A stretch of 64,000 nucleotides of DNA from a virus. The notes beneath the pieces were generated by a model, which worked only from the letters and a program-made list of their open reading frames with translations, was not told the DNA's origin and did not search any database. The stretch covers positions 37,747-101,746 of the IMG/VR virus record IMGVR_UViG_3300045988_025287, one strand, 5' to 3'. Position 1 is the first letter of the stretch. Each line of letters opens with the position of its first letter. The position numbers and the translations under genes are program-made. This document shows, piece by piece, positions 3,508 to 58,854 of this stretch.

Positions 3508-3539
3508 AGCGGGGAGTCGTGCACTCCCTGCTTTTATTC
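3508..3539 (+). terminator. intrinsic terminator
   Basis: 10-bp stem AGCGGGGAGT/ACTCCCTGCT with loop CGTGC, followed by TTTATT. Confidence 0.6.
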
Positions 3540-4512: not shown

Positions 4513-4520
4513 CCACTAAT

Positions 4521-4563
4521 TAGAACAAGAGAATAGCATAGCAAAAATAATGCGCTTGTTCTA
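4521..4563 (+). repeat. hairpin element copy A (TAGAACAAG..loop AGAATAGCATAGC..AATGCG..CTTGTTCTA)
   Basis: 9-bp stem, then an A-rich run. Related to copy B at 5430-5525, with two compensatory base-pair changes in the stem. Confidence 0.55.
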
Positions 4564-5429
4564 TAAATAAAAAAACTCAATAACTTCGGAGTAGCGTAAG
4601 CTACGGAGTTGTGTAACAATCCCAAGACATTGAGGGCACCAGTTTCTTATTCATTTTACTAAACATAATTGTAATCTAAACTACTATAGGGATACTCCTT
4701 GGGAGGATAATTATATGACAGAGGAAGTAGTAGAATAAGTTTTAGGTGTAAAATGCAATTTAATCATTAACTAAATAAATAATCATATGGACAGAGATAC
4801 AAGATTAGGTATGTTATCAGTAATAATCACAATGATAGTATTATATCTATCTATATGGTTATTTAACTAAGATATACAGATTTATTCGCAAAGTAATTAT
4901 TCTATGAAATGCAAATTATCCTCATATGTTGTGAAACATAGTTTAACCACGTTAAAGTATAATAATATAAGTTAGGTATGCCCTTATAAAGACTTAGGTA
5001 GCGCTAAGGACTATATTATTATACTTCTCTTCTTAATGCAACTACATCTCTCGTAAGCAATAACCGTGACAAGTCGGGGAGAGAACACATTTGAGTTTAT
5101 GTGTCAAGAATGCAGAGTCAAGAATACTATATGAAACCTACTGGAGATAGGTAATGCACAACCGTCAAGAGTGTAAGGAAGTATAGTATAATCCACGTGG
5201 TAGATGCAGTTGTAGGTTCCAACTGGTGCACATCTTTTAGAGACAGTAACCAAGCTCGAAGTAAGCAGAGCGAAGACAATTAGCTATACCTCGATAGGCT
5301 TAATGAGGTGCTTAACAGTCTGACACTAACTGAACAATAAGTGTCTGTTCATCCTCAAAGAGGAAAATGTTGAACTCTACAGACATGTAGACAGCTCCAT
5401 TAACTCTAGCTGTAACAAAGAGTTATTAA
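4564..5429 (+). ncRNA. ORF-free island bracketed by the two related hairpins
   Basis: No ORF of 60 aa or more in any frame. All three stop codons are frequent in every frame. Contains only a 27-aa TM mini-ORF (4787-4870). GTCAAGA occurs 3 times (5103-5170). Function unknown. Confidence 0.3.
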
Positions 5430-5525
5430 TAGAGTAAGAGAATAGAAACGTGTATATCTACGTAGTTCATAGCATAGCTTATAGTCGTATAACACAACAT
5501 CGATTATATTAATGCGCTTACTCTA
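5430..5525 (+). repeat. hairpin element copy B (TAGAGTAAG..AGAATAG..CATAGCATAGC..AATGCG..CTTACTCTA)
   Basis: Same architecture as copy A with a loop about 53 nt longer. Followed by a T-rich run. Confidence 0.55.
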
Positions 5526-5563
5526 TTATTTTTATTGCATTAACTAACAAATAAATCAATTAT

Positions 5564-5814: not shown

Positions 5815-6243
5815 ATGAAGAAAATAACTTGTATTCAGAATTATGTAATAGATAAGCTTATTGAAGACAAGAAATTGTCTACAAATAGTCTATTAGATGC
5901 AGTTTCTAAAGTATGTTCAAAGGAACAGTTTGATAATATACTGTCTATTCTTATAGAAACACCTATTCCTTGTACAAATATGCCTGAATTAGAAAGCAAA
6001 ACAAACTTAGTAAGAATGAGTATGTTTATATCTGAAGAAGCTGGCAATGAAACTAAATTGAGGATAATAAAAATACTAATGAACCAATTTGGTCTTGGTC
6101 TTAAACAAACTAAAGAATATGTAAATAGTTGTATAGGAAAATATAATATATTACCTAAAGCTGTTATGCAAGCAGAAATAGATGAAGTTACAGAAAAATT
6201 AGAACCTTACAATGTAATTGTATCTACAGCAGGGTTTTATTAA
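5815..6243 (+). CDS. protein with ribosomal bL12 (L7/L12) C-terminal-domain-like module
   Basis: The C-terminal part KLRIIKILMNQFGLGLKQTKEYVNS..AEIDEVTEKLEPYNVIVST aligns by eye with E. coli bL12 CTD [42 protein letters not shown]. Confidence 0.55.
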   Translation: MKKITCIQNYVIDKLIEDKKLSTNSLLDAVSKVCSKEQFDNILSILIETPIPCTNMPELESKTNLVRMSMFISEEAGNETKLRIIKILMNQFGLGLKQTKEYVNSCIGKYNILPKAVMQAEIDEVTEKLEPYNVIVSTAGFY

Positions 6244-6711
6244 TAAGTTAATGCAGTAAATATTACTGCATCTTTAAGGTGAGAATCCTTAACAATCCTG
6301 TGGGGCTTATATCTCGTGTTTATAGTAGTGGTGTCACGAGTATTAGTGCAGACGTTAAAATCAGGAACAACTATATTAGACGGCAATATTACCTTCTTCC
6401 AGTCGCAAATGTCATATAGTTTAATATAGCCAAGTTCGTTCGTCCTTAGATTTATGGTATTAGCCATTTGTTTATTTAATCATCGTTTCATTCTTAATTG
6501 TACAGATTGATTAATTAAGCATAACAGTAAGCGTACTGTTGTCAGTATATTTATATGTGAATATAGATATACTGATTGCACTCATTAAGGTAGCCTTCAT
6601 GTGGCGAGTGTGTTAAGTAATAGGTCTAAAGAATCTTCCAGTTTGTACCTATGAAAACTAATACCTTTAACCGCCAGCTCACGCGGTATATAAGACAGGA
6701 TTGCCGGACCC
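6244..6711 (+). ncRNA. ORF-free structured island (family with the 8.1 kb and 18.0 kb elements)
   Basis: Several perfect hairpins: TGCAGTA/TACTGCA, CTCGTG/CACGAG, AACAGTA-AGCG-TACTGTT, CAGTATAT/ATATACTG. Shared motifs TGTGGGGC (6299) and GTGCAGACGTTAAAATCA (6347). Confidence 0.35.
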
Positions 6712-6746
6712 GCAGGTGTAACGAGATAAATACCTGCATTTTTTAT
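6712..6746 (+). terminator. intrinsic terminator
   Basis: Stem GCAGGT..ACCTGC followed by ATTTTTTATT. Confidence 0.6.
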
Positions 6747-6785
6747 TAACCTTAATAATTATCAAGTTGTAAACTTTAATTTAAT

Positions 6786-6868
6786 GCCCAGATGGCGAAA
6801 TAGGTAGACGCTAAGGTCTTAAACACCTTTGACCATTGGTCGTGCGGGTTCGACTCCCGCTCTGGGTA
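6786..6868 (+). tRNA. tRNA-Leu(UAA), long variable arm
   Basis: Hand-folded cloverleaf: acceptor GCCCAGA/TCTGGGT, anticodon arm AAGGT-CTTAAAC-ACCTT, variable arm TGACCATTGGTCGT, T arm GCGGG-TTCGACT-CCCGC. Confidence 0.85.
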
Positions 6869-6897
6869 CAATTAGTAATTAACATTAAAATCTATTT

Positions 6898-7203
6898 ATG
6901 ATAAAAGTAATTAAATATTATGAACTAAATCGAATTAGTAGAATATTAGTAATAGCAATAATAACATATATTGTTGGTATTCTAATTAAAAGAGAATACG
7001 AAGAGTCCAAAACTGTATATAATTTTGTAGATTTACAAATGAAGTACAAGAATTATATATTAGTCAATAAAGAGAGAAGTATTACTAATGATGAAGAATA
7101 TAAGTTCACATTACGTAATCCTATTACAAACCAAAATAGTACTGTATATGTAAAGTACTATCTATATCATCACGTATATTTTGTTGGAGATACTATAAAG
7201 TAA
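6898..7203 (+). CDS. hypothetical membrane-anchored protein (101 aa)
   Basis: ORF track. N-terminal TM helix. Confidence 0.5.
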   Translation: MIKVIKYYELNRISRILVIAIITYIVGILIKREYEESKTVYNFVDLQMKYKNYILVNKERSITNDEEYKFTLRNPITNQNSTVYVKYYLYHHVYFVGDTIK

Positions 7204-7222
7204 CATTTTAATCAATAAAAGT

Positions 7223-7591
7223 ATGAAAAGAGAAGAAATTAAATCTTACAAAGACGCTTGTAGAGTAATAGGTAGAAAACCTAGAACTTATAAAGATAAG
7301 CATTTGAATCTGTATGAACAGCTTAGTGCAATTATAGCTGCTCTGAATTTCATTAGTAATGATAATAAACCTTGGACACCTAAGTTCGATTATTATTACA
7401 TCTATTCTTGGTTATACAGAAAAGATGGATATAATAAATCTGCGGGTTTGTTCTATTTGGCTTCTTACGCTGGGTTGGGCGCTTCCGGTGCTCTTGTCGG
7501 GACTTCTCTGAAAATAAAAGAGAGAGAAGATGGAAATTACATAATAGAAAACTTTAAAGAACTACTCCAAGATTGGTTTTGGGGAGATTAA
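7223..7591 (+). CDS. hypothetical protein (122 aa)
   Basis: ORF track. Packed with its neighbours. Confidence 0.5.
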   Translation: MKREEIKSYKDACRVIGRKPRTYKDKHLNLYEQLSAIIAALNFISNDNKPWTPKFDYYYIYSWLYRKDGYNKSAGLFYLASYAGLGASGALVGTSLKIKEREDGNYIIENFKELLQDWFWGD

Positions 7592-7616
7592 TTACTAATT
7601 TTAAAACATTATCAAA

Positions 7617-8075
7617 ATGGAAAATGAAATGATGGCGAGACCCGAACCGCCAAGAAGAACTGTTTGGGTAATAGTAGCAATCATTGCCTTAATAGGCATG
7701 TTTGGAGCAATGATTTACGCAGAGCGTGAAAACATTGCCAATTTCTTAAATGGTGTGAACCAAGAAGAAATACAAGAAGATCCTCAAGTTATCATTGAGG
7801 AACCTGTAACAACAATACAGGATATTCTCGACATGAGAGAGCAAATGAGAGAAGATAGAAGAGTTGATAGTGTATTTTTAGCTATGCCAAAGGTAGTATT
7901 AATTGATATTTTGATGCAGCATGGTACGTCATTGTCTATAAAAGACATAATTTACATATATGAATCAAACACATCAACGTACAACACAGTATTATCTGGG
8001 GCAAGAGCTCAAAAATATCTTGATGACTCTATACAAACTCATGTTATATCAACTGTTGTAAACGACTCTATTTAA
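7617..8075 (+). CDS. hypothetical membrane-anchored protein (152 aa)
   Basis: ORF track. TM helix WVIVAIIALIGMFGAMIY. Confidence 0.5.
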   Translation: MENEMMARPEPPRRTVWVIVAIIALIGMFGAMIYAERENIANFLNGVNQEEIQEDPQVIIEEPVTTIQDILDMREQMREDRRVDSVFLAMPKVVLIDILMQHGTSLSIKDIIYIYESNTSTYNTVLSGARAQKYLDDSIQTHVISTVVNDSI

Positions 8076-8465
8076 GACTAGACCTTCTTTTTAGTTAATA
8101 TTAGAGTCTAGTATACTCAGTCTGTGAAGATAGAGTATACGTCCTCAGAAAATGACAAACATGTGGGGCGGGAGTAAATAAGTAAAACTAAGCAGTAGTA
8201 TTATATATCAGTAAGGATACTACGCCGAATCTGATTGTTTTGTTTATTTATAGTCGTGCGGACGTTAAAATCATGTACTCCAATAAGATTTAGTTTGACA
8301 GCTATTTCTGCTTACGAGTTAAAACTATAGTGAGAGTCATAGTAAGTAACGATTGTAGTCGTTTATCTTTGTCTTATAACAAATGCTATAAACTAAGTTG
8401 GCACTAACTTAATTAAATCCTGAGTGCCCAGGCGTCATTATTAACAATTTAAATTTTTTAGAAAC
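8076..8465 (+). ncRNA. ORF-free structured island (same family as 6.3 kb)
   Basis: No ORFs. Motifs TGTGGGGC (8162), ACGCCGAAT (8222) and TAGTCGTGCGGACGTTAAAATCA (8251). Confidence 0.35.
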
Positions 8466-9675: not shown

Positions 9676-9712
9676 TTTAAATTGTTAGTAAAATGGTGGA
9701 TTCAGTCAACCC

Positions 9713-9866
9713 AAAGAACTGTTTAAGACTAGAACCCTAATGGAAATTGTCAATCAAGAGTACAATGGACTATACAACGGTCAACCACATTATATGTAGG
9801 TCAGGAGAAGGCAGGGAGTCTCCTGTTGAATAAGAAGTACAAATAGACAGGAACAGTTCTTTTTAA
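9713..9866 (+). ncRNA. structured element closed by an 11-bp long-range helix plus T-run
   Basis: AAAGAACTGTT (9713) pairs with AACAGTTCTTT (9852) and is followed by TTTTAATT. Inner hairpin CAGGAG..CTCCTG. Confidence 0.35.
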
Positions 9867-10657: not shown

Positions 10658-11302
10658 CTAAATCAAAACAAATAAAAGAGGTTCCAAGCTTAGAATCTTT
10701 GAATCAATAGCTTAGTATGTGAGTCGGAAATAGTTCTTTTGAACTCTAGGGCCTGAGGCATACAAGGACCTGAATTAACAGGTCTCATACAGAATTTTAA
10801 ATCAGTTATGGGGAACTACCGTGAACTACTGATCATAAGTCTGAGATCGCGACAATAAGATTGTCCTCTAGAAATAGAGAAACGCTCTAGTCGTGACATC
10901 AAGTTTAGACTGAATAATATGAATCTTTGAATCGTTTAAAGTATCTATACTTTAACTATTATTCGTGTATTATCAAGATCAGTATAAGAGAACTAACCAT
11001 TCTCAAGACCATAGGGTATATGACTTTGGTCGGTCATATACCCACAATAGAGTAGGTATAATACCGAACTGTAAAAAGAATTGACTGTTAGGTCTATTTA
11101 TGCCTTCAGGTGACCGCGGGGCAGTACCGCGCACATCCACTAAAAAAATATAATAAGGGTGTGAAATAGTATTGAACCGTTGAAACAGAATAGAATAGGT
11201 CAATAAGCAGATAACTGGCAATACAAGTTATGTAACGGACTATACTGGTATCGCAGCGTGATAACAGAGTCCAACGGCTAAGCTAATGTCGTAGAAAGCT
11301 GG
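10658..11302 (+). ncRNA. ORF-free structured island ending in a tRNA-like element
   Basis: No credible ORF. The 13-mer GAATCTTTGAATC occurs at 10693 and 10921. Hairpins GGTATATGAC/GTCATATACC and CGCGG/CCGCG. TAGTCGTG motif at 10893. Confidence 0.3.
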
Positions 11303-11382
11303 AGTAAGGATAGTACTCAGATGGTAGAGCGGTGAGATAATATCAAAAGCTGGTATCGGAGGTTCGAGTCCTCCCCTTACTA
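11303..11382 (+). tRNA. tRNA-like gene, anticodon arm not foldable (identity undetermined)
   Basis: Acceptor AGTAAGG/CCTTACT. D-arm-like CTCAGATGGTAGAG. Perfect T arm GGAGG-TTCGAGT-CCTCC. The 27 nt in between give no 5-bp stem with a 7-nt loop by hand. Confidence 0.4.
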
Positions 11383-12713: not shown

Positions 12714-12761
12714 GTCTATAGAGTCTTGGTTGACTCTATAGGCACACTAAAGCCCGTAATT

Positions 12762-13322
12762 ATGACAGATGAAGAAAGACAACAGCTTTTAGATCTGATC
12801 AAGCAGGCTAAAGAAGGTAAACAATATGCCTTCACACAGCTTTATAATCGTTATCACAGAATTATATACAATACTATATATAATATTGTACACAATAAGG
12901 ATGTAACAGATGATTTAGTATCTGTAACGTTTACTAAAGCTTTCTTTAAGATAGCTAGTTATATTAATCATATTTCATTTGAAATGTGGTTAAAAACTAT
13001 CGCTATAAATAGTAGTATTGATTATATACGACGTACTAAAAAAGAGAAGTATGATTATGAGTTAGATAATGATAATAACTGTCTACAGGTAAGCAGTTCG
13101 GCCGACAGCTCACCAGAAGATGTCTACATCTATCATGAGACGGATAGTAAGTTATCTGATGCACTAAACAGACTTCGCTATAAGTATAGGTATATACTTG
13201 AACTACGCACAGTTCAGAATCTCTCTTACAAGGAGATTGCTGAACATCTTGAGCTCTCTGAGTCTCAAGTAAAATCTCGCCTTAATAAAGCGAGAGAGAA
13301 ATTAAAACAATTGTTAAACTAA
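12762..13322 (+). CDS. ECF-type sigma-70 family RNA polymerase sigma factor
   Basis: Region 2-like: FTQLYNRYHRIIYNTIYNIV..DDLVSVTFTKAF..WLKTIAINSSIDYIRR. Region 4 HTH: LELRTVQNLSYKEIAEHLELSESQVKSRLNKAREKL. The ATG at 12762 is preferred over the TTG at 12726 used in the track. Confidence 0.8.
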   Translation: MTDEERQQLLDLIKQAKEGKQYAFTQLYNRYHRIIYNTIYNIVHNKDVTDDLVSVTFTKAFFKIASYINHISFEMWLKTIAINSSIDYIRRTKKEKYDYELDNDNNCLQVSSSADSSPEDVYIYHETDSKLSDALNRLRYKYRYILELRTVQNLSYKEIAEHLELSESQVKSRLNKAREKLKQLLN

Positions 13323-16185: not shown

Positions 16186-18291
16186 TGATAATAACCGTAT
16201 AATAAATACTATAATTATATCACAGTTCGAGAGGAGTAAAACTATAGCGTAAATCACTCCGAGGAAGTCATGCGGTAAGGTATATAATAATACTGGTCGC
16301 ACCTGTCAGGGAGTTTGGAATCATTTCTCCATAGCCCGAAAAGTTACATGATCCGAGAATATGTTAGCAGCTAAAACTGTGAGATTACTCAAAAGGTAGG
16401 ATGTTAGCTTATGTAATTGAAAACTACATAAGAGGGGATAAGCGTGTACAATCCTCATTAGGAAGTGAGAACCGTTTGGAGACTTCTAAAGACGCAGTAC
16501 TAAAGAGAAGACACACTGAGTGCTAAACAGTACAAAGGGAACGAAATCCCTATATCCGTATTAGTTTATCAAAAGCAGAATCAAAAAGGGATATAAACAC
16601 GATGACGAAACAGGGACAATACGGTTCCTGACTTATTCCTTTGGAAAGAATAAGTAAAGCCGAGAGGCAAAGGTTAGTTTCACCTTAAGAAGCAGCCAGC
16701 TCGTGGAAAAAAAGAGATTGCAGATAACGCATTACCGGTCTCCAAAATCGGTTAACAAAAGCGCTACTGTGCGTCCAGAAAGGGAAACAGGCTAACTCTA
16801 GTGTTCAGTATACATCAGCTGTGATGCAATATGCAATTGTGGATATTGGAACTTATACTTATGAAGGGAGTAAACTACTAATACTAATGTAAGGATAACC
16901 GTGTTATGGTACATACTTATACAAAGTAAGGATATGAAAGCTGGAAACGCAATGATCCAAGAATTAAACGTGCAAACGTTAAAGCTTGACTGATTAACGT
17001 GGAGCAGGAGCCAATCCTGTACATTATCGTAAATAGTGTGCTGTAAAAGAACTTACGTATAAGGGATGAGGTATATGAGATTGATACCATCTTTCAAGTC
17101 TAAGGTGACTCATGAGTTTTGTCGTGTAGATGAGTATAATGTATGAGAAATGACGAGACTAAAATATAATAGTCTAAAATGCGAGTATGAGGGCGCTATA
17201 ACCCTGAACTTAGAAGCGGACACCTTTAGCAAGTGTTATTACGTGGTAATAAATAAGATTAGGAGATGCAGAGAAAACTCCTTGTAAAAAACGGCAGAGC
17301 TTAAGCATTTCAAGATATGTAAATGCCTTTGATTTATTATGCTAGTTCACACCAGAATTTTGGATAATAAACATCGTTATGGATTAAGGAAGTAAATAGA
17401 GTTATTAAAGATGCTTTAGAGTTAGAATCCTAAAACCAGTTTAGTAATAATTATAGTATATGATGATATACTTAATGAATCAATTTTACTTACGCTGAGT
17501 AGAGTCAGCTATGACAAAATGAACTCTAATTATTTAACTTTTTAATTAATTGGGAAGTCCAATGATAGTACAGAGATTTCAAACTACTATTGTAAAGTAG
17601 GAGTTAAGGAGTACGAGTCACCCCGACTGCCAACCGACATTGCTGACTGTTAAGACACTCGTAAAGTACAATGCGCAACATTGTATGTGAGAGAACGCTG
17701 AGTCGTTAGTTACCTGTGTTGTTTCTTACACTGTCTCTGTAAGGGCAATAGTACACTTATGATGAAAGTATTCCATAAGCAAACAAGGAGACGATGATAG
17801 GTGGAAATCCTAATGTTCGTGCAGTATAAACAAACAAATCCTGGAAATGGTATAGATGGGTCATGCTATAAGCAATGAGTCTATGATTTTAGTAATGTTA
17901 GATTAAACAACCGTAATTCTAGCGAATTTCGATAATATCCGGACATACTCAGTAGGTTCTAAGGAACTGATGATAAAGTGGCTTATATCGCATCTAATCG
18001 CGTTATACGCTTACGGTGAGGGGTGCGTTAAGCATCGAAGGAATTGAATCTTAACCGTCGAAACGGGACGTTAAAACAAAAAATATCAGAAATTATCAGA
18101 AGTAACTCACAGAGTATTTCTCATAAATTTTCAATTTATTATTTTTATGCTTAGTAGATTATGTGATTGAGTTCACCTATTCCAATTTTGAATAGCTATT
18201 AAATAATCGAACGGTGGAGAGACTTTAACAATTTTTTGTATAACTATGTTCGTATTGGTATATCAAGTACGGACTCAAAAAGGAACATTTT
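16186..18291 (+). ncRNA. 2.1 kb ORF-free, purine-rich, hairpin-dense island (candidate giant structured RNA)
   Basis: No ORF of 60 aa or more in six frames. TAA, TGA and TAG all recur in every frame I sampled, so recoding does not rescue it. Many short perfect hairpins, several GAAA-capped: ATGTA-ATTGAAAAC-TACAT, GGGA-ACGAAA-TCCC, CTTATTC..GAATAAG, AGACTA..TAGTCT. Ends with the GACGTTAAAA motif (18067). Confidence 0.4.
18084..18101 (+). promoter_or_regulatory. phased TATCAGAA repeats (2 copies, 10-nt spacing)
   Basis: TATCAGAAATTATCAGAA is identical to 26224-26241. Lies about 190 nt upstream of the 18292 ATG. Confidence 0.4.
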
Positions 18292-19584: not shown

Positions 19585-19658
19585 AGTTCCTTAGCTCAAC
19601 TGAATAGAGCAACACACTTCTAATGTGTAGGTTATGGGTTTGAATCCCATAGGAACTA
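19585..19658 (+). tRNA. tRNA-Arg(UCU)
   Basis: Canonical 74-nt cloverleaf: AGTTCCT/AGGAACT, D arm GCTC..GAGC, anticodon arm ACACA-CTTCTAA-TGTGT, T arm ATGGG-TTTGAAT-CCCAT. Confidence 0.85.
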
Positions 19659-21134: not shown

Positions 21135-21205
21135 TCTCATGTAGCTCAGTGGTAGAGCCGCTACTATGTAGTGTGAACGCGTTGGTTCGAGTCCAACCAT
21201 GAGAT
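21135..21205 (+). tRNA. tRNA-like gene with aberrant anticodon arm (identity undetermined)
   Basis: Canonical acceptor TCTCATG/CATGAGA, D arm GCTC-AGTGGTA-GAGC and T arm GTTGG-TTCGAGT-CCAAC. The anticodon region CGCTACTATGTAGTG folds as a 5-bp stem with a 3-5 nt loop, not the 5 bp + 7 nt form. Confidence 0.45.
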
Positions 21206-21227
21206 CTAACTTTTAAATACTTATAAT

Positions 21228-27663: not shown

Positions 27664-27712
27664 TTTTGTAGATAATCCTATAAGCAGCCTACGCTAGGCA
27701 TAATATAGCGAT

Positions 27713-27872
27713 ACGTGAGTAGCATGCCGCTATGTGAGATAAGAAGCAATCGACGGTAATACGCCGAATGTAAGGTGTGACGGAGGTATCAAAATTCATA
27801 GAATAGGGATAGCATGCACTCACGTTTTTATGATAGTAATGGTTAATTAAGGTTCGATTCCTTGGCTATCAC
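27713..27872 (+). ncRNA. structured element plus tRNA-like acceptor/T-arm minihelix
   Basis: ACGTGAGTaGCATGC (27713) pairs with GCATGCACTCACGT (27812), followed by TTTTTA. Then TGATAGT..TAAGG-TTCGATT-CCTTG-GCTATCA forms a T arm plus acceptor with no D or anticodon arms. Shares ACGCCGAAT (27761) with the 8.2 kb island. Confidence 0.35.
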
Positions 27873-27886
27873 TAAAAATATATCAT

Positions 27887-53034: not shown

Positions 53035-56000
53035 TTAAATTAATGAATTTCTGTATGTTGTTGTAATCTATGGTATTTCAAAAGTATGATCTATATCAGA
53101 ATCTAACTCATAATCGCATATCATATACTTACCTCTTAACCTAGCAGGTAACGATAACGCATCTTCATTCTTATCTGCTCTAGGTACTGGGAATCTAAAT
53201 GTATCTTCTCTATAATCAGTTATTATATGTTGTTCAGGAGTAATAACATTACCTTCTTCATCAAGTTCTTCTTTAGTATGTTCTCTAACTGATTCTTGAT
53301 GTTTAGTACTGAATTTCATATAATCTATGATATCGTCCTTAATAGACTCTTGATTACCATCTCTAAACTCTCCTTGTAATCTAACATTATCAAATACTTT
53401 AGTATAAGGAGCATTCTTATTAATAACTATTTCTAATTTAGCTTTTCTATCTAAAGGAGTTAACCCTATTACTCCAGTATCATGTATAGTATGCAATTCA
53501 TTGTCTTTTATTGCTACTACTCTATCAGAAATAGGTAACGACCATTTAGGATTAAATGTATAGAAAGATGTAAATCTACCTAACTACTCATTAAATATTA
53601 ATGGTTTGTTTAATATATTAAACCACACCTCATTATACTTCTTATCAAATAAAGACATAGCTTTAGCCCTATCTTCTTTAATGTTTTTATTAAAGTAAGA
53701 TTGTACCTGCTTTTCTTTAGATAACTAACTTACTTGACCTGTATAAGAACATATTTCGTTCTTATCATAATCGTACCAATAAAGCACATTATCTGAATTA
53801 ATTATACTCTTATCATTCTTAATAGACGAACCATTAGTAGTAGTTACATAGTCGAATCTACTTAATATACCACCAGTACCTAATACTAACTGATTTACAT
53901 TATCATCAGTAATAAGTGACCTTTCATTGACAGAAGCTACTCCTACTCCAGTATCTTGGAAATAGAATAGTCTATCTTTGAATACTTTTAGATTGGTTAT
54001 GTCTCCCCACTGATTATCTACATCTAAGTAATCAGCTACTTTGAATTTAGACCACTAATCTATTACTTCATTATTAGTCTTAGCCTATGAAGTTAATATT
54101 CTATTAGTATATCTTACATCTTTATCGGCATACATAGAATTAGGTACATACAATTTACCAGTATTCTATGCAGAATAAACAGAATTATATACAAAGTAAG
54201 GAAGATCTTGTACATGTATGTCCTACATCTAAGTAGGCTCTAACTGCAACCAAGAATCTGCAAAATTTGAACTAGTTACTGTTCTATGAATCTGATCTCC
54301 GTGGAATAAATTCATATTAATAGAACTTTCAAATGGTATATAAGCTCCTATATAATTCTTCATTCCGTCCCATTCTTTAGCGTCAGGTAATTGGAATAGC
54401 ATAGTATTAGGATAATCTAATAAGCTTAGATAAGTATCTCCTCCAAATACATACTTGCTGTCGTGCGCTGCTATACTTATGTATACAGAATTCTGTCTAG
54501 ATGAGAATGTGTTACCACCATATATAGAATTACCATCACGTTTAACATTAAATACAGGAATAGCATTAGTAGAATCAAAAGGATGAAGTTCTGGATATTT
54601 ACTAGTAGGTACGCTATTAAATCCAGAGAATACATTCTATAATTCTGGTACATGGGCTATAATACACGGACCAGCTGGACCTTGTAATGATTGATTATCA
54701 TTATGAATAAAGTCAGACATAGAGTAGTTAGTATAAGTTCTATTACCAACATTTATTCTTTTAGCTACTACATCTGGAGCTCCATACATATTATAATCTA
54801 TATTGGGTGGGTATTTAGCATCTTCAATATACGATGTAGATTGAGATTGTCCAAATGTTGGAACGAAATATTTAGCTATTGATGCTCCACGGTATACCTT
54901 ATTACCTCTACTATCTTGATAAGGGAAACCTACAGCAAGTACGTTAAGCCCCCATCTCTAGCCATAACCTACATATGGCACAGTATCTTGCTGCAATACT
55001 CTACCATCTATCTGAGTAACGTAATCCGCCGCAGCAAATATACTACGACTTACACTATTACCAATAGTATTACCATTTACATAGTTATCTTTAAAATCAT
55101 CAAACTTGCTATCATTTACTTTACCACCTACAAATGGAGAATAGTATGAGCCTATACCATCTAAGTATACACTTCCTTCAAACAGTTTAGTTGCATCATC
55201 CCCTTGTACACATATTTCTGGAGATACTAAACGTATATAATCATTTACTCTCATAGTAAGAGAGAAATTACCAATATCTTCCGCTGTACCTGTTGATATT
55301 GCTAATTGTTCACCAATCAAACTACAGAAGAAAGGAGTAGGTCTCATCTCCAAACTACTATCTAATTCAGATCCCTATCCTACATATTTATCCTGCTCTT
55401 GAATTCTATACTCATATACGTAACTACCTACTGTTTGCATAACTACAGTCCTATCACGTTCAGTTCTATCACAACGAACTATCTCGTAACTCACTGCACC
55501 TACAGGCATCTTCTTTACTTTGAATTCTACACCTAGAGCATTACCTATAAGAGTATTGTTTTCATATCTAAACGGAGGCATTTGTGAAGCATGAGGCATT
55601 CTAATATCACCTATCCAGAGTACAGGAGAAGCTACAGATTTATCATTATAGAATATTATACCAAATCTATATATCTCATCTCTTTGGTAACCTCTATAAT
55701 TAGCAGCTATATATGGATCAGCATAATTGGGTATATATGGATTATTCTTCTATTCTTCAGTAGGCTGTACTATTTCAGGCATTTTATTATCGCCCCTGTT
55801 TATATACCTAGTATTATTCCTAACAGTAGGTACATCCATACTACAGGATTGATTCAATCTAAACTTATCTTGTTTACTACTTAGATTTATATCTGTAGTT
55901 ACAAAGGAATACTCTATATTAATACCATAACCGCCTAATTCACCATCCTTGTTGTATATATATGTATTCTAAGAATTAGATGCATCCTTAGTATACTTTA

Positions 56001-57925: not shown

Positions 57926-58854
57926 TATGGTCTATTCTAATTATAAATATCTTGTCGTTCTCCTACTGTACTATAAAAAGTATCATGGGCATCTATTTCC
58001 GGGTATAATTTTAACCAAGAGTTCTACACCGAGGCCAAATCATCTACGGTAGGCATCATAGCTTCAGCATATGCTTGCTTACGATAGAAGTTATAAGAGT
58101 TGCGTATATCATAATAATCTCCCTGACTTATTTGACCTTTTAACTTTTTAGGATACATTAATTTCATAGTAACATACCAGTATATAGCTTCCTTATAAGA
58201 CTCTAAATCTGGTATCATTGGCATACTATCTTCATCTGTATATATAGCATAATATGATATCTTAATGTATCCTCTAGGTACATTAGTCATTATATAACCA
58301 GGTTTAGTCATATACTGTAAATCATAACTATACATAGTACCATCTTTATGACCTATTCTATTACTTAAATATCTGCCATTTGCTGTAGGTACAGTATTCT
58401 AGTTTATTAATGCACTTAATGTTTCTCTAAGATTATTATCTTCATTTAACTTGTCCAATGCTTCTCTATCGTTAGTAAGATTAAACATATTCTTAACTAA
58501 TGGGAACATGGCTGCATCCTGCACTAGCATACAAGCTTTACTACAACATTGATTATCATGAGATACACCAAAACTGGATGTTGCTTTTCTCATAGGTAGC
58601 CATCCACCATTACAACAATATGAATATGCTACCTAATCTAATTTATACAAATCACAAGGTAATGATACTTGGTGGCATTCTATTGGAAGTATTTCTACTT
58701 TATGCTCAAACTGCTATATAGCTCCAATCTTAAGTATGGATTCCATAATCCACTCCCGAATATCTGTAATACGTATCTCATCTTCTCTTAAATCGAGATC
58801 TGCTATTACTTTAGCTACTACAGAAGCTGAACTAATCATACGATTATTTATCAT
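57925..58854 (-). CDS. structural-module protein (309 aa, 5 TAG)
   Basis: Fragments 58024.. and 58399.. are joined in frame. ATG 58854 forms an ATGA overlap with the upstream stop. TAA at 57927..57925. Confidence 0.65.

Follow-up and report, generated by a model that had tools for sequence, protein, structure and literature searches.

Gene-free islands in a crAss-like phage genome contain different RNA classes, including two hatchet ribozymes and an HDV-like ribozyme candidate

Results

Gene-free islands contain conserved RNAs of different classes

We analysed a 64,000-nt stretch (the window) of a crAss-like phage (Suoliviridae, Loutivirinae) whose nearest relative is cr53_1. We estimate at about 75% the probability that its gene-free islands are different RNA classes rather than paralogues, which make up an early/middle plus-strand module with two hatchet ribozymes, an HDV-like ribozyme candidate and proposed self-processing precursors. 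The initial annotation, which described five islands sharing short motifs, is partly confirmed, and most of the finding is already known. The islands are indeed non-coding, structured and strand-specific RNAs, but they are not one shared family. Homology to each other is limited to the two hatchets; the remaining islands represent RAGATH-9, a RAGATH-20/22-like RNA, a permuted tmRNA, the HDV-like candidate and a pre-primase element (Table 1).

The islands remain ORF-free with TAG or TGA reassigned, and hidden coding capacity was rejected for all of them because TAA is abundant in every frame. They are not poorly conserved spacers, as evidenced by their retention in other genera at or above the conservation level of flanking genes. 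The same element order was found in six other genomes, representing five genera and two subfamilies (Loutivirinae and Uncouvirinae). About one quarter of the 4.5-28 kb stretch is non-coding, a density that had rightly been called unusual for a phage. Several islands finish at a tRNA or tRNA-like module (the ends at 6786, 11303 and 27831 adjoin one) or at a helix with a U-run, in line with the proposal of discrete, ended RNAs. Gathering-level Rfam matches in the window are both hatchets, RAGATH-6, -7 and -9, the permuted tmRNA and three tRNAs. Relative to the RNA families that reached Rfam, two parts are unannotated: the HDV-like candidate and 16186-18291, a conserved structured region of 2.1 kb. 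Twenty neighbouring ORFs were scanned with PHROGs and Pfam; they include a membrane protein and an ECF-type sigma factor, with otherwise weak matches, and no RNA-processing enzyme was found among them.

Table 1. RNA elements located in the window
Element	Position	Strand	Basis or description
P0 hairpin of hatchet 1 (AUGCAGUA/UACUGCAU)	6251-6271	+	Sequence read-out
Hatchet ribozyme 1	6270-6366	+	Rfam RF02678, 97.9 bits (gathering score 51), full model
Two hairpins before the HDV-like site	6525-6576	+	H1 6525-6538, H2 6541-6576 (invariant loop UGUGAA)
HDV-like ribozyme candidate	6578-6667	+	Covariation, model R1 matches, descriptor scan, published family features
Terminator-like hairpin GCAGGU/ACCUGC with U-run	6712-6744	+	Between HDV-like element and tRNA-Leu
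tRNA-Leu(UAA)	6786-6869	+	ARAGORN; Rfam tRNA, 55.3 bits
P0 hairpin of hatchet 2 (GUAUACUC/GAGUAUAC)	8111-8140	+	After ORF 7617-8075, 5' of hatchet 2
Hatchet ribozyme 2	8141-8276	+	Rfam RF02678, 81.6 bits (gathering score 51), full-length alignment
Conserved 3' extension of hatchet 2	8277-8350	+	Short helix ACUC/GAGU around near-invariant AAGAUUUAGUUUGACAGCUAUUUCUG
Two hairpins with complementary loops	8395-8432	+	GGCACU 8400-8405, AGUGCC 8423-8428
RAGATH-9 RNA	9702-9862	+	Rfam RF03146, 136.3 bits (gathering score 75.2)
Conserved non-coding block (island D)	10658-11079	+	RAGATH-20/22-like core 10767-10848; alignment
Permuted (two-piece) tmRNA gene	11080-11261	+	Rfam RF04321, 56.1 bits (gathering score 47)
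tRNA-like element after tmRNA coding piece	11303-11382	+	7-bp acceptor stem, T-arm, degenerate D-arm
Conserved hairpin motif with third GACGTTAAAA	18013-18077	+	3' end of the 2.1-kb island
Pre-primase structured element	27664-27886	+	5' hairpin, long helix with U-run, tRNA-like minihelix

Two of the four shared motifs recur at chance level

GACGTTAAAA was found at 6351, 8261 and 18067 and nowhere else, always on the plus strand, against an expected count of 0.05-0.13; the bases before it are GTGCA, GTGCG and GG, as originally described. TGTGGGGC has two sites only, 6299 and 8162. The pair of motifs near 6.3 kb and the pair near 8.2 kb each form the conserved catalytic core of a hatchet ribozyme. 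GTGAGGGGTGC, which had been compared with TGTGGGGC, is present near 18 kb, at 18016 and not 18018.

The other two motifs, ACGCCGAAT and TAGTCGT, are attributable to chance. ACGCCGAAT does occur at 8222 and 27761, but this recurrence is at chance level, and its conservation ends with cr53_1 and is not kept in further relatives. The four TAGTCGT sites are real (5482, 8251, 8356 and 10888; the earlier coordinates were off by 1-5), but three more plus-strand and two minus-strand sites bring the total to nine, with about three expected per strand. In a permutation test with 300 dinucleotide shuffles of the five islands, 53 9-mers were present in at least two islands against 34.7 expected (p ~0.013), an excess partly due to two longer strings held in common, each counted as several overlapping k-mers: the hatchet core GACGTTAAAATCA contributes five 9-mers and the AT-rich run TTTGTTTATTTA contributes four. 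Since about 35 shared 9-mers are expected, a pair such as ACGCCGAAT is expected by chance. GACGTTAAAA is the sole 10-mer in at least three islands (expected 0.01). A/T-rich strings before start codons were also considered as shared promoters and rejected: TTTAATCAATAAATTA was at chance level, and loose matches to TTATTAACAATTTAAA were weakly in excess, without a clear pattern.

Both hatchets follow a stop codon and a hairpin

The two window hatchets are members of the known hatchet family, and their self-cleavage is predicted from sequence. Hatchet ribozymes are not known to have a biological role, and it took years before a host genome was known. They were previously reported mostly in Crassvirales genomes. 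Hatchets cleave after C(-1), on the 5' side of P1, and approximately 90% of them have a P0 hairpin 5' of the site (PMC4604424); both window hatchets carry the C at -1 and the P0 hairpin. Furthermore, both have the P1-P4 architecture and the blocks UGUGGGGC and GUGC(A/G)GACGUUAAAAUCA, with no essential difference from the family (RF02678; Weinberg et al. 2015; Li et al. 2015, PMC4604424).

Each hatchet lies a few nt past the P0 hairpin that follows the stop codon of the upstream ORF. Hatchet 1 contains TGTGGGGC (6299) and GACGTTAAAA (6351), with predicted cleavage between C6272 and U6273 (AUC↓UUUAAGG); its P0 lies immediately 5' of the cleavage site and 8 nt past the ORF 5815-6243 stop codon. 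Hatchet 2 has a 3-bp P1, like the active Ht-2 construct, a G replacing A in GUGCAGAC, and predicted cleavage between C8143 and C8144 (GUC↓CUCA). Its orthologue follows the same ORF in 6/6 other annotated genomes scanned. It also bears a conserved 3' extension outside the family model, whose helix is GAGU/ACUC or GGG/CCC in Buchavirus.

Downstream, two hairpins with complementary loops (8395-8432) end 33 nt upstream of the start of ORF 8466. The loops covary, being GGUACU/AGUACC in cr4_1 and AGCACU/AGUGCU in cr60_1, and the second stem varies from CCUG/CAGG to CCAG/CUGG. A pistol ribozyme was rejected for these kissing hairpins: the strand order is unfit (without P3 and without the cleavage-site linker) and there is no Rfam match.

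A conserved pseudoknot resembles HDV-like ribozymes

The conserved block between hatchet 1 and tRNA-Leu (6578-6667) is an HDV-like ribozyme candidate outside Rfam detection, with predicted catalysis. P1 is formed by 6578-6583/6606-6611, with G6578·U6611, and P2 by 6588-6592/6662-6666, which A6587-U6667 can extend in the window. Because P1 and P2 are interleaved, this is a pseudoknot fold; with the P3 and P4 hairpins it is a nested double-pseudoknot. P3 has 3 bp (6593-6595/6603-6605) and a 7-nt loop L3 (6596-6602, UUCAUGU). A putative P1.1 consists of C6598-G6612 and U6597·U6613, too short for statistics. P4 is 6620-6625/6647-6652 with AGUA/GAA on its flanks, and J4/2 (6653-6661) includes C6658, the putative catalytic general acid. 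Cleavage is predicted between U6577 and G6578.

Covariation was determined in two alignments. Among 14 diverse sequences, 98.7% of cells were paired and 16 pairs had changed on both sides; 0/500 shuffles reached this level, and slid controls gave at most two such pairs. With the HDV helices in 11 sequences, including a divergent genus recovered by model R1 at 40-59 bits, 95.7% were paired and 12 of the 21 pairs had changed on both sides (P1, 3; P2, 4/5; P3, 1; P4, 4/6), again with 0/500 shuffles reaching the level and with 20-51% pairing in slid controls. Model R1 matched in other genera, with one copy per genome. L3 in relatives is UUCACGU (in most of them, and which we take to equal the L3 of CPEB3), UUCUCGU, UCAACGU or UCAUCGU, with U1 and G6 invariant. 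CUAA stands before the P2 3' strand in 11/11 sequences, C6658 being invariant three nt before P2, and the G6578·U6611 wobble at the P1 base is present in 8/11. The Buchavirus versions have a 7-bp P1 that opens with C-G and no G·U base, and their P1/P1.1 register is shifted by one nt, with an A-U pair possible for P1.1. The exact cleavage site is uncertain because this P1 start and register differ.

An HDV descriptor scan of both strands of the 64 kb identified this block as the sole locus with a P2 of at least 6 bp, against 0.04 per shuffle. Matches at 54038-54178 (+) and 58664-58798 (-) have 4-5-bp A/U-rich P2 helices, as expected by chance, and were rejected. Searches of 5 kb at E<=5 and of 121 nt at E<=10 gave no Rfam HDV-family match.

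Two conserved hairpins precede the element, with pairing in 95-99% of cells and changes on both sides in 3/5 (H1) and 6/15 (H2) pairs. A single nucleotide separates H2 from the predicted cleavage site. The G·U pairs at the bases of P1 and H2 (the latter in 13/14 sequences) form only in plus-strand RNA. Among 93 distinct contexts of the motif, a hatchet core lies within 700 nt upstream in 44 and a tRNA-type T-loop within 400 nt downstream in 64, indicating that both associations are frequent but not obligatory.

The candidate shares the nested P1/P2 double pseudoknot with embedded P3 and putative P1.1 with HDV, CPEB3, the RAGATH HDV variants (Weinberg 2015) and the Ackermannviridae phage ribozyme, as well as the 3-bp P3, the 7-nt L3 with U1/G6 and the C three nt before the P2 3' strand. 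In the window, the G6578·U6611 wobble and the putative P1.1 (one Watson-Crick pair plus U·U) also resemble the G1·U wobble and P1.1 of these ribozymes. In this family, the first U of L3 and the G five positions on form a reverse wobble, and the CPEB3 L3 positions are U20, C22, A23 and G25 (PMC4836649). P1.1 of CPEB3 and of the active Ackermannviridae ribozyme is one Watson-Crick pair and one pyrimidine-pyrimidine pair (PMC4836649, PMC13635239). Unlike classical HDV ribozymes, the candidate has longer J1/4 (8 nt) and J4/2 (9 nt), and the AGUA/GAA at the P4 base is a putative loop-E element in these long junctions. It differs further in its P1 (6 bp in the window, 7 bp without the G·U base in Buchavirus), in the two conserved hairpins before the predicted site, and in the lack of an Rfam HDV-family match.

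RAGATH, tmRNA and tRNA-like elements

RAGATH denotes RNAs associated with genes associated with twister and hammerhead ribozymes, and the clustering of RNAs around ribozymes is the known RAGATH phenomenon. The gathering-level matches to RAGATH-6, -7 and -9 beside self-cleaving ribozymes fit this concept. The 9713/9852 helix with T-run noted earlier is real; 9713-9722/9853-9862 is the outer helix of RAGATH-9. In the 10658-11079 block, which has a covarying hairpin (11014-11024/11033-11043), the core 10767-10848 reached only 29.6 bits with the RAGATH-20 model (E 0.0086 on 451 nt; gathering score 101.4). The GAAUUAAC hairpin and ACUGAUCAU are common to the core and RAGATH-20, and a full RAGATH-20 occupies the syntenic position in Buchavirus. 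We regard the core as probably a distant RAGATH-20/22-like variant, although the block is far under the RAGATH-20 and RAGATH-22 thresholds and has approximately 300 nt of extra conserved structure.

The tmRNA has the two-piece layout, with an acceptor piece with T-arm, an intervening loop and a coding piece from GGGUGUG. The acceptor stem is GGGUGUG/CACAUCC with G3·U. ARAGORN called no tmRNA in the window, but the tag GNTSYVTDYTGIAA* is near-identical to ARAGORN tags of three relatives with a called permuted tmRNA, and it ends in IAA (hydrophobic-A-A), as in the class. This tmRNA differs from the class in being phage-encoded and followed by a tRNA or tRNA-like module. Here that module is a cloverleaf remnant with 88.7% identity to the called tRNA-Leu(UAA) of cr60_1; ARAGORN called no tRNA at 11303-11382, and the counterparts in cr52_1, cr115_1 and cr53_1 are reduced, without the anticodon arm.

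The terminator-like hairpin at 6712-6744 is present in the window and cr115_1 and absent where the tRNA directly follows the ribozyme. It could terminate transcripts, so tRNA-Leu may have its own promoter.

The 2.1-kb region and the pre-primase element

The ORF-free region 16186-18291 is conserved across genera (67-77% identity). Column shuffles gave consensus fold energies of -334 to -361 kcal/mol and 17-27 compensatory pairs, whereas the region itself reaches -532 kcal/mol and 95 such pairs. No Rfam match was found for it in the window or in four relatives scanned. The third GACGTTAAAA (18067) lies at its 3' end, with GACG as the 3' strand of a small CGUC/GACG hairpin. Its fifth base varies (T, A or C) in relatives, in contrast to the invariant GACGUUAAAAU expected of a hatchet. 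This copy was rejected as a hatchet: it has no P2-complementary strand, and a 2.2-kb search gave no hatchet match at E<=10.

The 27713/27812 helix with T-run was also verified. It pairs 27713-27727 with 27812-27825 (8+6 bp with a 1-nt bulge) and covaries in relatives, ACGUGAGU..GCAUGC becoming ACGUAGGU..GUGUAC with matching partners. It is followed by an acceptor/T-arm minihelix (27831-27872), whose T-loop core GTTCGAnTC is found in 8/8 aligned genomes and whose form GGTTCGAnTCC in 5/8, the window included.

Discussion

The HDV-like candidate stands 1 nt past a hairpin and the hatchets a few nt past theirs. That both ribozyme types lie immediately 3' of a hairpin suggests a transcript that processes itself, with ribozymes and tRNA(-like) elements as punctuation, and probably the ribozymes and other RNAs cut one long transcript into pieces. 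In such a mechanism, the module would be transcribed as long self-processing precursors, and the hatchet and HDV-like ribozymes would each cut at their own 5' edge. The upstream mRNA or non-coding RNA would carry a hairpin and a 2',3'-cyclic phosphate at its end, and the downstream RNA would begin with a folded ribozyme and a 5'-OH. The tRNA and tRNA-like modules would recruit host RNase P/Z to set further ends. Island A would yield the mRNA of ORF 5815-6243, an RNA of about 305 nt (6273-6577) and an HDV-led RNA with tRNA-Leu. Such tRNA(-like) modules directly 3' of non-coding RNAs are shared with mitochondrial transcripts, the MALAT1 mascRNA and the GOLLD/ROOL RNAs (PMC5737381); self-cleaving ribozymes are the addition here, and RNase P/Z processing is assumed.

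Both hatchets, in the genome of a classified phage, occupy a defined position after a stop codon and then a hairpin, near an HDV-like candidate of the same plan and tRNA-like modules. This position and these neighbours provide a concrete, testable model of ribozymes as punctuation that parts mRNAs and non-coding RNAs. RNA genes fill about a quarter of the early region, where public crAss-like genome records are blank or in places show hypothetical ORFs. The HDV-like candidate would add a phage lineage to its class, and the 2.1-kb region is a candidate new large RNA; our literature searches found no paper that deals with large crAss-like phage non-coding RNAs. Further new-class candidates are the hatchet-2 extension, the kissing hairpins and the tRNA-tailed pre-primase element. 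We propose only tentatively, and with more doubt than belief, that the parts outside the libraries are new crAss-like phage RNA classes, that 16186-18291 is possibly one giant ornate RNA larger than GOLLD/ROOL, and that all of them form a self-processing RNA operon with the ribozymes. If true, this operon of new RNAs and ribozymes would take up about a quarter of the early region.

A single repeated RNA or DNA element with a common core, copied into all five islands, is highly improbable. The triple occurrence of GACGTTAAAA, found nowhere else, and the nominally significant excess of shared 9-10-mers would fit such a family, but a single model aligns the two hatchets only, and the islands match different Rfam families. 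Moreover, the third GACGTTAAAA sits in another secondary structure with a variable fifth base and no hatchet score at E<=10, model R1 gives one copy per genome, and ACGCCGAAT is not kept past cr53_1. The converse reading, chance recurrence in poorly constrained spacers, is slightly less probable still. It holds for two of the four motifs, as TAGTCGT (nine sites, about three expected per strand) and ACGCCGAAT are at chance level, and is already refuted for the islands as a whole by their conservation across genera at or above that of flanking genes, their matches to curated RNA families and their many compensatory changes.

A more serious alternative, though still an unlikely one, is that 6578-6667 has an HDV-like topology without catalysis and serves, for example, as a leader that binds a protein or ligand, or as a cap that stabilises the 5' or 3' end. 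No Rfam HDV model matches it, P1 lacks the G·U base in one genus, the long, highly conserved junctions could be binding sites, and many relatives have a U-run and the start of an ORF after the P2 3' strand. Against this, the defining features of active HDV-like ribozymes are conserved (L3 U/G, 3-bp P3, J4/2 C), the putative P1.1 resembles that of active phage and nematode members, and the candidate is placed among other self-cleaving ribozymes. A role of the conserved blocks as DNA rather than RNA (promoters, operator sites or a replication origin) is in our view improbable. Promoter-like words (TTGACA and TTTG-type) do occur in the near-invariant AAGATTTAGTTTGACAGCTATTTCTG after hatchet 2, an ECF-type sigma factor is encoded within the region, and some conserved A/T-rich strings stand before start codons. 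However, conservation tracks base pairing, including pseudoknot helices and G·U pairs possible only in the plus strand, and curated RNA models match. Sigma-70-like promoter matches were fewer than in shuffles (51 vs 75), and the same promoter/terminator scan, itself of little informative value, detected only one clear terminator in the stretch, at 3508-3532.

Genomic setting and known RNA elements

BLAST against phage records placed the window among crAss-like phages (Crassvirales, Suoliviridae, Loutivirinae). The nearest relative is cr53_1 (Blohavirus americanus), with 88-95% nucleotide identity to the window; cr4_1, cr52_1, cr56_1, cr60_1, cr109_1 and cr113_1 are more remote, and cr115_1 belongs to another subfamily. 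The G+C content is approximately 32%. Between about 3 and 32 kb the genes are plus-strand, further on they are minus-strand, and near 32 kb GC skew and coding strand both switch, marking the border of two transcription modules. The ORFs flanking the RNA islands encode small hypothetical proteins. The same module encodes a DNA polymerase, a helicase, a primase and an ECF-type sigma factor with Sigma70 regions 2 and 4 (12726-13322), the last bearing on the transcription of the RNA islands. An unusually G+C-rich block at 2780-2860 (GGTGGTGCGTGTGTGTG ... CCCCGGC ... CCCCCGCC) occupies the divergent intergenic region between the minus- and plus-strand gene sets; the intergenic part at 2686-2798 shows conservation of 99% with cr115_1 and of about 74% with cr52_1.

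We scanned the window with Rfam at curated thresholds and obtained nine matches. The helix at 9713/9852 and its T-run, which the initial annotation had described, are real and form the outer helix of RAGATH-9. Six other genomes carry the same RNA series in unchanged order. The hatchets and this conserved series are already known biology. The stretches flanking RAGATH-6 and RAGATH-7 (4513-4878 and 5347-5563) are conserved in part among relatives. ARAGORN called tRNA-His as 72 nt (21135-21206) with the anticodon ATG unusually at position 32, and relatives have short or long tRNA-like matches at this place, 5' of the DNA polymerase gene.

RNA features of the window
Feature	Position	Source	Remark
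RAGATH-6	4879-5029	Rfam, 176 bits	upstream of the annotated islands
RAGATH-7	5124-5346	Rfam, 174 bits	upstream of the annotated islands
Hatchet ribozyme 1	6270-6366	Rfam, 97.9 bits	
tRNA-Leu	6786-6869	Rfam	coordinates from ARAGORN
Hatchet ribozyme 2	8141-8276	Rfam, 81.6 bits	
RAGATH-9	9702-9862	Rfam	
Permuted tmRNA	11080-11261	Rfam	
tRNA-like element	11303-11382		degenerate, tRNA-Leu-like; 3' of tmRNA coding piece
tRNA-Arg	19585-19658	Rfam	
tRNA-His	21135-21205	Rfam, 46 bits as tRNA	

An HDV-like ribozyme candidate in island A

Between hatchet 1 and tRNA-Leu, island A (6.24-6.71 kb) contains a block of ~145 nt. Even in cr4_1, whose neighbouring DNA is about 70% identical, the block is kept at roughly 90%. 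Scanning viral contigs for its pattern recovered the block in 112 stretches. In an alignment of 14 diverse representatives, its six proposed helices were 98.7% paired and sixteen pairs had changed on both sides, a number equalled in 0 of 500 shuffles; slid controls gave at most two such pairs. The covariance model built from the block found exactly one copy per genome. It further recovered divergent versions, scoring 40-59 bits, at the equivalent place in three genomes of the genus Buchavirus that have no upstream hatchet.

Across its 3' two-thirds, the block has the strand order of HDV-like ribozymes: P1 5' strand, P2 5' strand, P3 hairpin, P1 3' strand, P4 hairpin and P2 3' strand. These helices were 95.7% paired, with both-side changes in 12 of 21 pairs (11 sequences, including the divergent genus), and covariation was seen in both P1 and P2, which interleave. 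P3 has 3 bp. Loop L3 has 7 nt, of which the first U and the sixth G are invariant; these form the reverse-wobble pair of the HDV-like family (PMC4836649). P1 opens with G6578·U6611, and the putative P1.1 (C6598-G6612 plus U·U) is of the type found in CPEB3 and in the active Ackermannviridae phage ribozyme. C6658, three nt 5' of the P2 3' strand, is invariant and by sequence would hold the position of the catalytic cytosine. A descriptor scan for HDV-like folds on both strands of the window found P2 of at least 6 bp only at this locus, compared with 0.04 per shuffled window. Three points count against membership: Rfam HDV-family models gave no match to the candidate, its junctions are long, and the Buchavirus copies do not begin P1 with a G·U. 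Taken together, we assign a probability of about three in four that the element is an HDV-like self-cleaving ribozyme. It would then add a new member to an established class. The predicted cut falls between U6577 and G6578, one nt past the conserved hairpin H2 (6541-6576), with 6576/6577 as the alternative site. Among 93 contexts of the HDV-like motif, a hatchet core lay upstream in 44 and a T-loop downstream in 64. The modules are often combined and can occur independently.

Motif recurrence and the hatchet ribozymes

The ORF-free islands had been proposed as one family sharing four exact strings. The strings are present, although the coordinates given were slightly off. GACGTTAAAA occurs in the window only at 6351, 8261 and 18067, TGTGGGGC only at 6299 and 8162, and ACGCCGAAT at 8222 and 27761. 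TAGTCGT has nine sites, seven on the plus strand, and about three per strand are expected. The five islands share 53 9-mers, versus about 35 expected by chance in a permutation test. Part of this excess stems from overlapping 9-mers in an AT-rich string and in the 13-mer GACGTTAAAATCA. GACGTTAAAA was the sole 10-mer common to three islands (0.01 expected). Therefore, one motif is truly non-random and TGTGGGGC goes with it; the recurrence of the other two is at chance level.

Hatchet model alignments identify TGTGGGGC and GUGC(A/G)GACGUUAAAAUCA as the conserved internal-loop blocks of this ribozyme family, which a recent preprint describes as largely confined to Crassvirales. The cleavage site of hatchets follows a C at the 5' edge of the ribozyme, and a P0 hairpin lies just upstream in about 90% (PMC4604424). 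Both window hatchets obey this rule. In hatchet 1, P0 (6251-6271) is followed by a predicted cut between C6272 and U6273, 29 nt past the stop codon of ORF 5815-6243. In hatchet 2, P0 (8111-8140) precedes a predicted cut between C8143 and C8144, downstream of ORF 7617-8075.

The third GACGTTAAAA, where the 2.1-kb island reaches its 3' end, lies within a motif kept in cr52_1, cr56_1 and cr60_1; one stem of the motif covaries (GUUAAG/CUUAAC to GCUAAG/CUUAGC). In this copy, GACG forms the 3' side of a small hairpin. We rejected this copy as a hatchet because its fifth base is variable, no pairing partner for a hatchet P2 was found, and the hatchet model had no match at E<=10 in the surrounding 2.2 kb. 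It resembles a hatchet in the ten-base string only.

Islands B, D and 27.7 kb

In island B (8.08-8.47 kb), a near-invariant 27-nt string lies directly 3' of hatchet 2. The short helix around it reads ACUC/GAGU in the window; cr56_1 and cr60_1 have GAGU/ACUC, and cr52_1 has GGG/CCC. Two hairpins with complementary six-base loops lie 33 nt 5' of the start of ORF 8466, and both loops change jointly in cr4_1 and cr60_1. Neither the string and its helix nor the hairpins matched a known family.

The first 420 nt of island D (10.66-11.30 kb) are 82% identical to cr4_1. They contain a covarying hairpin and a core in common with RAGATH-20 and RAGATH-22, scoring far under threshold; in Buchavirus genomes a complete RAGATH-20 occupies this position. 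The two-piece tmRNA has a G3·U in its acceptor stem and encodes the tag GNTSYVTDYTGIAA*, which agrees with the ARAGORN tags from relatives. ARAGORN called this phage-encoded tmRNA in three relatives and missed it in the window. The counterpart of the adjacent tRNA-like element is called tRNA-Leu in cr60_1, and three other genomes retain an acceptor stem and T-arm remnant. In cr4_1, a group I intron (L060:10532-10821, 75 bits), absent from the window, separates the island-D block from the tmRNA region. Its minus-strand ORF is labelled 'hypothetical protein' in cr4_1, and cr56_1 has an ORF labelled 'endonuclease' in roughly that location.

The pre-primase gap at 27.7 kb is ordered alike in eight genomes: a 5' hairpin that covaries, a long helix in which two neighbouring base pairs change together, a U-run and a T-loop piece. 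The T-loop core GTTCGAnTC is present in all eight, and in the window the piece folds into a T-arm and an acceptor stem of 7 bp. ACGCCGAAT at this island is not conserved beyond cr53_1.

Overall, the initial annotation holds in part: the islands are structured RNAs, but the single-family reading is wrong. Most of their parts are already known; no annotation covers the 2.1-kb region or several smaller motifs, and these merit further study.

A model for RNA processing

In the anatomy of the islands, tRNA or tRNA-like modules close three of them, and a hairpin lies one or a few nt 5' of each predicted ribozyme cut (both hatchets and the HDV-like candidate). This anatomy is shown; that the RNAs are transcribed and cleaved, and what their ends do, is inferred. 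Ribozymes of the hatchet and HDV-like classes both cut at their own 5' end. In the simplest model, a long plus-strand precursor would be separated into individual mRNAs and non-coding RNAs by the ribozymes that it carries, together with host RNase P/Z, and the stability of the pieces may be set by terminal hairpins and by 2',3'-cyclic phosphate or 5'-OH ends.

The 2.1-kb region

No ORF was found in 16186-18291 in any frame or code tested, and Rfam gave no match there in the window or in the four relatives scanned. The region is conserved in at least three genera, with 67-77% identity between genera over its whole length and blocks above 90%. Its consensus fold reached -532 kcal/mol with 95 compensatory pairs, versus -334 to -361 kcal/mol and 17-27 pairs in column-shuffled alignments. 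This support comes from some 40 local hairpins; no covariation was seen in the long-range helices of the predicted fold. The region could be one giant structured RNA, or several or a tandem set. A conserved 18-mer matched four crAss-sized MAG-binned contigs in the species-genome collection; a fifth match was unrelated and had no homology to the region.

In cr113_1 and cr109_1, a 145-aa minus-strand CDS is annotated inside the region; it is not conserved in the window and is probably spurious. CrAss-like contigs of 98-100 kb carrying the region (L183, L184, L185 and L187) are filed in bacterial MAGs labelled Gastranaerophilaceae, Bacilli from rabbit and Sphaerochaeta, which is probably a binning artefact.
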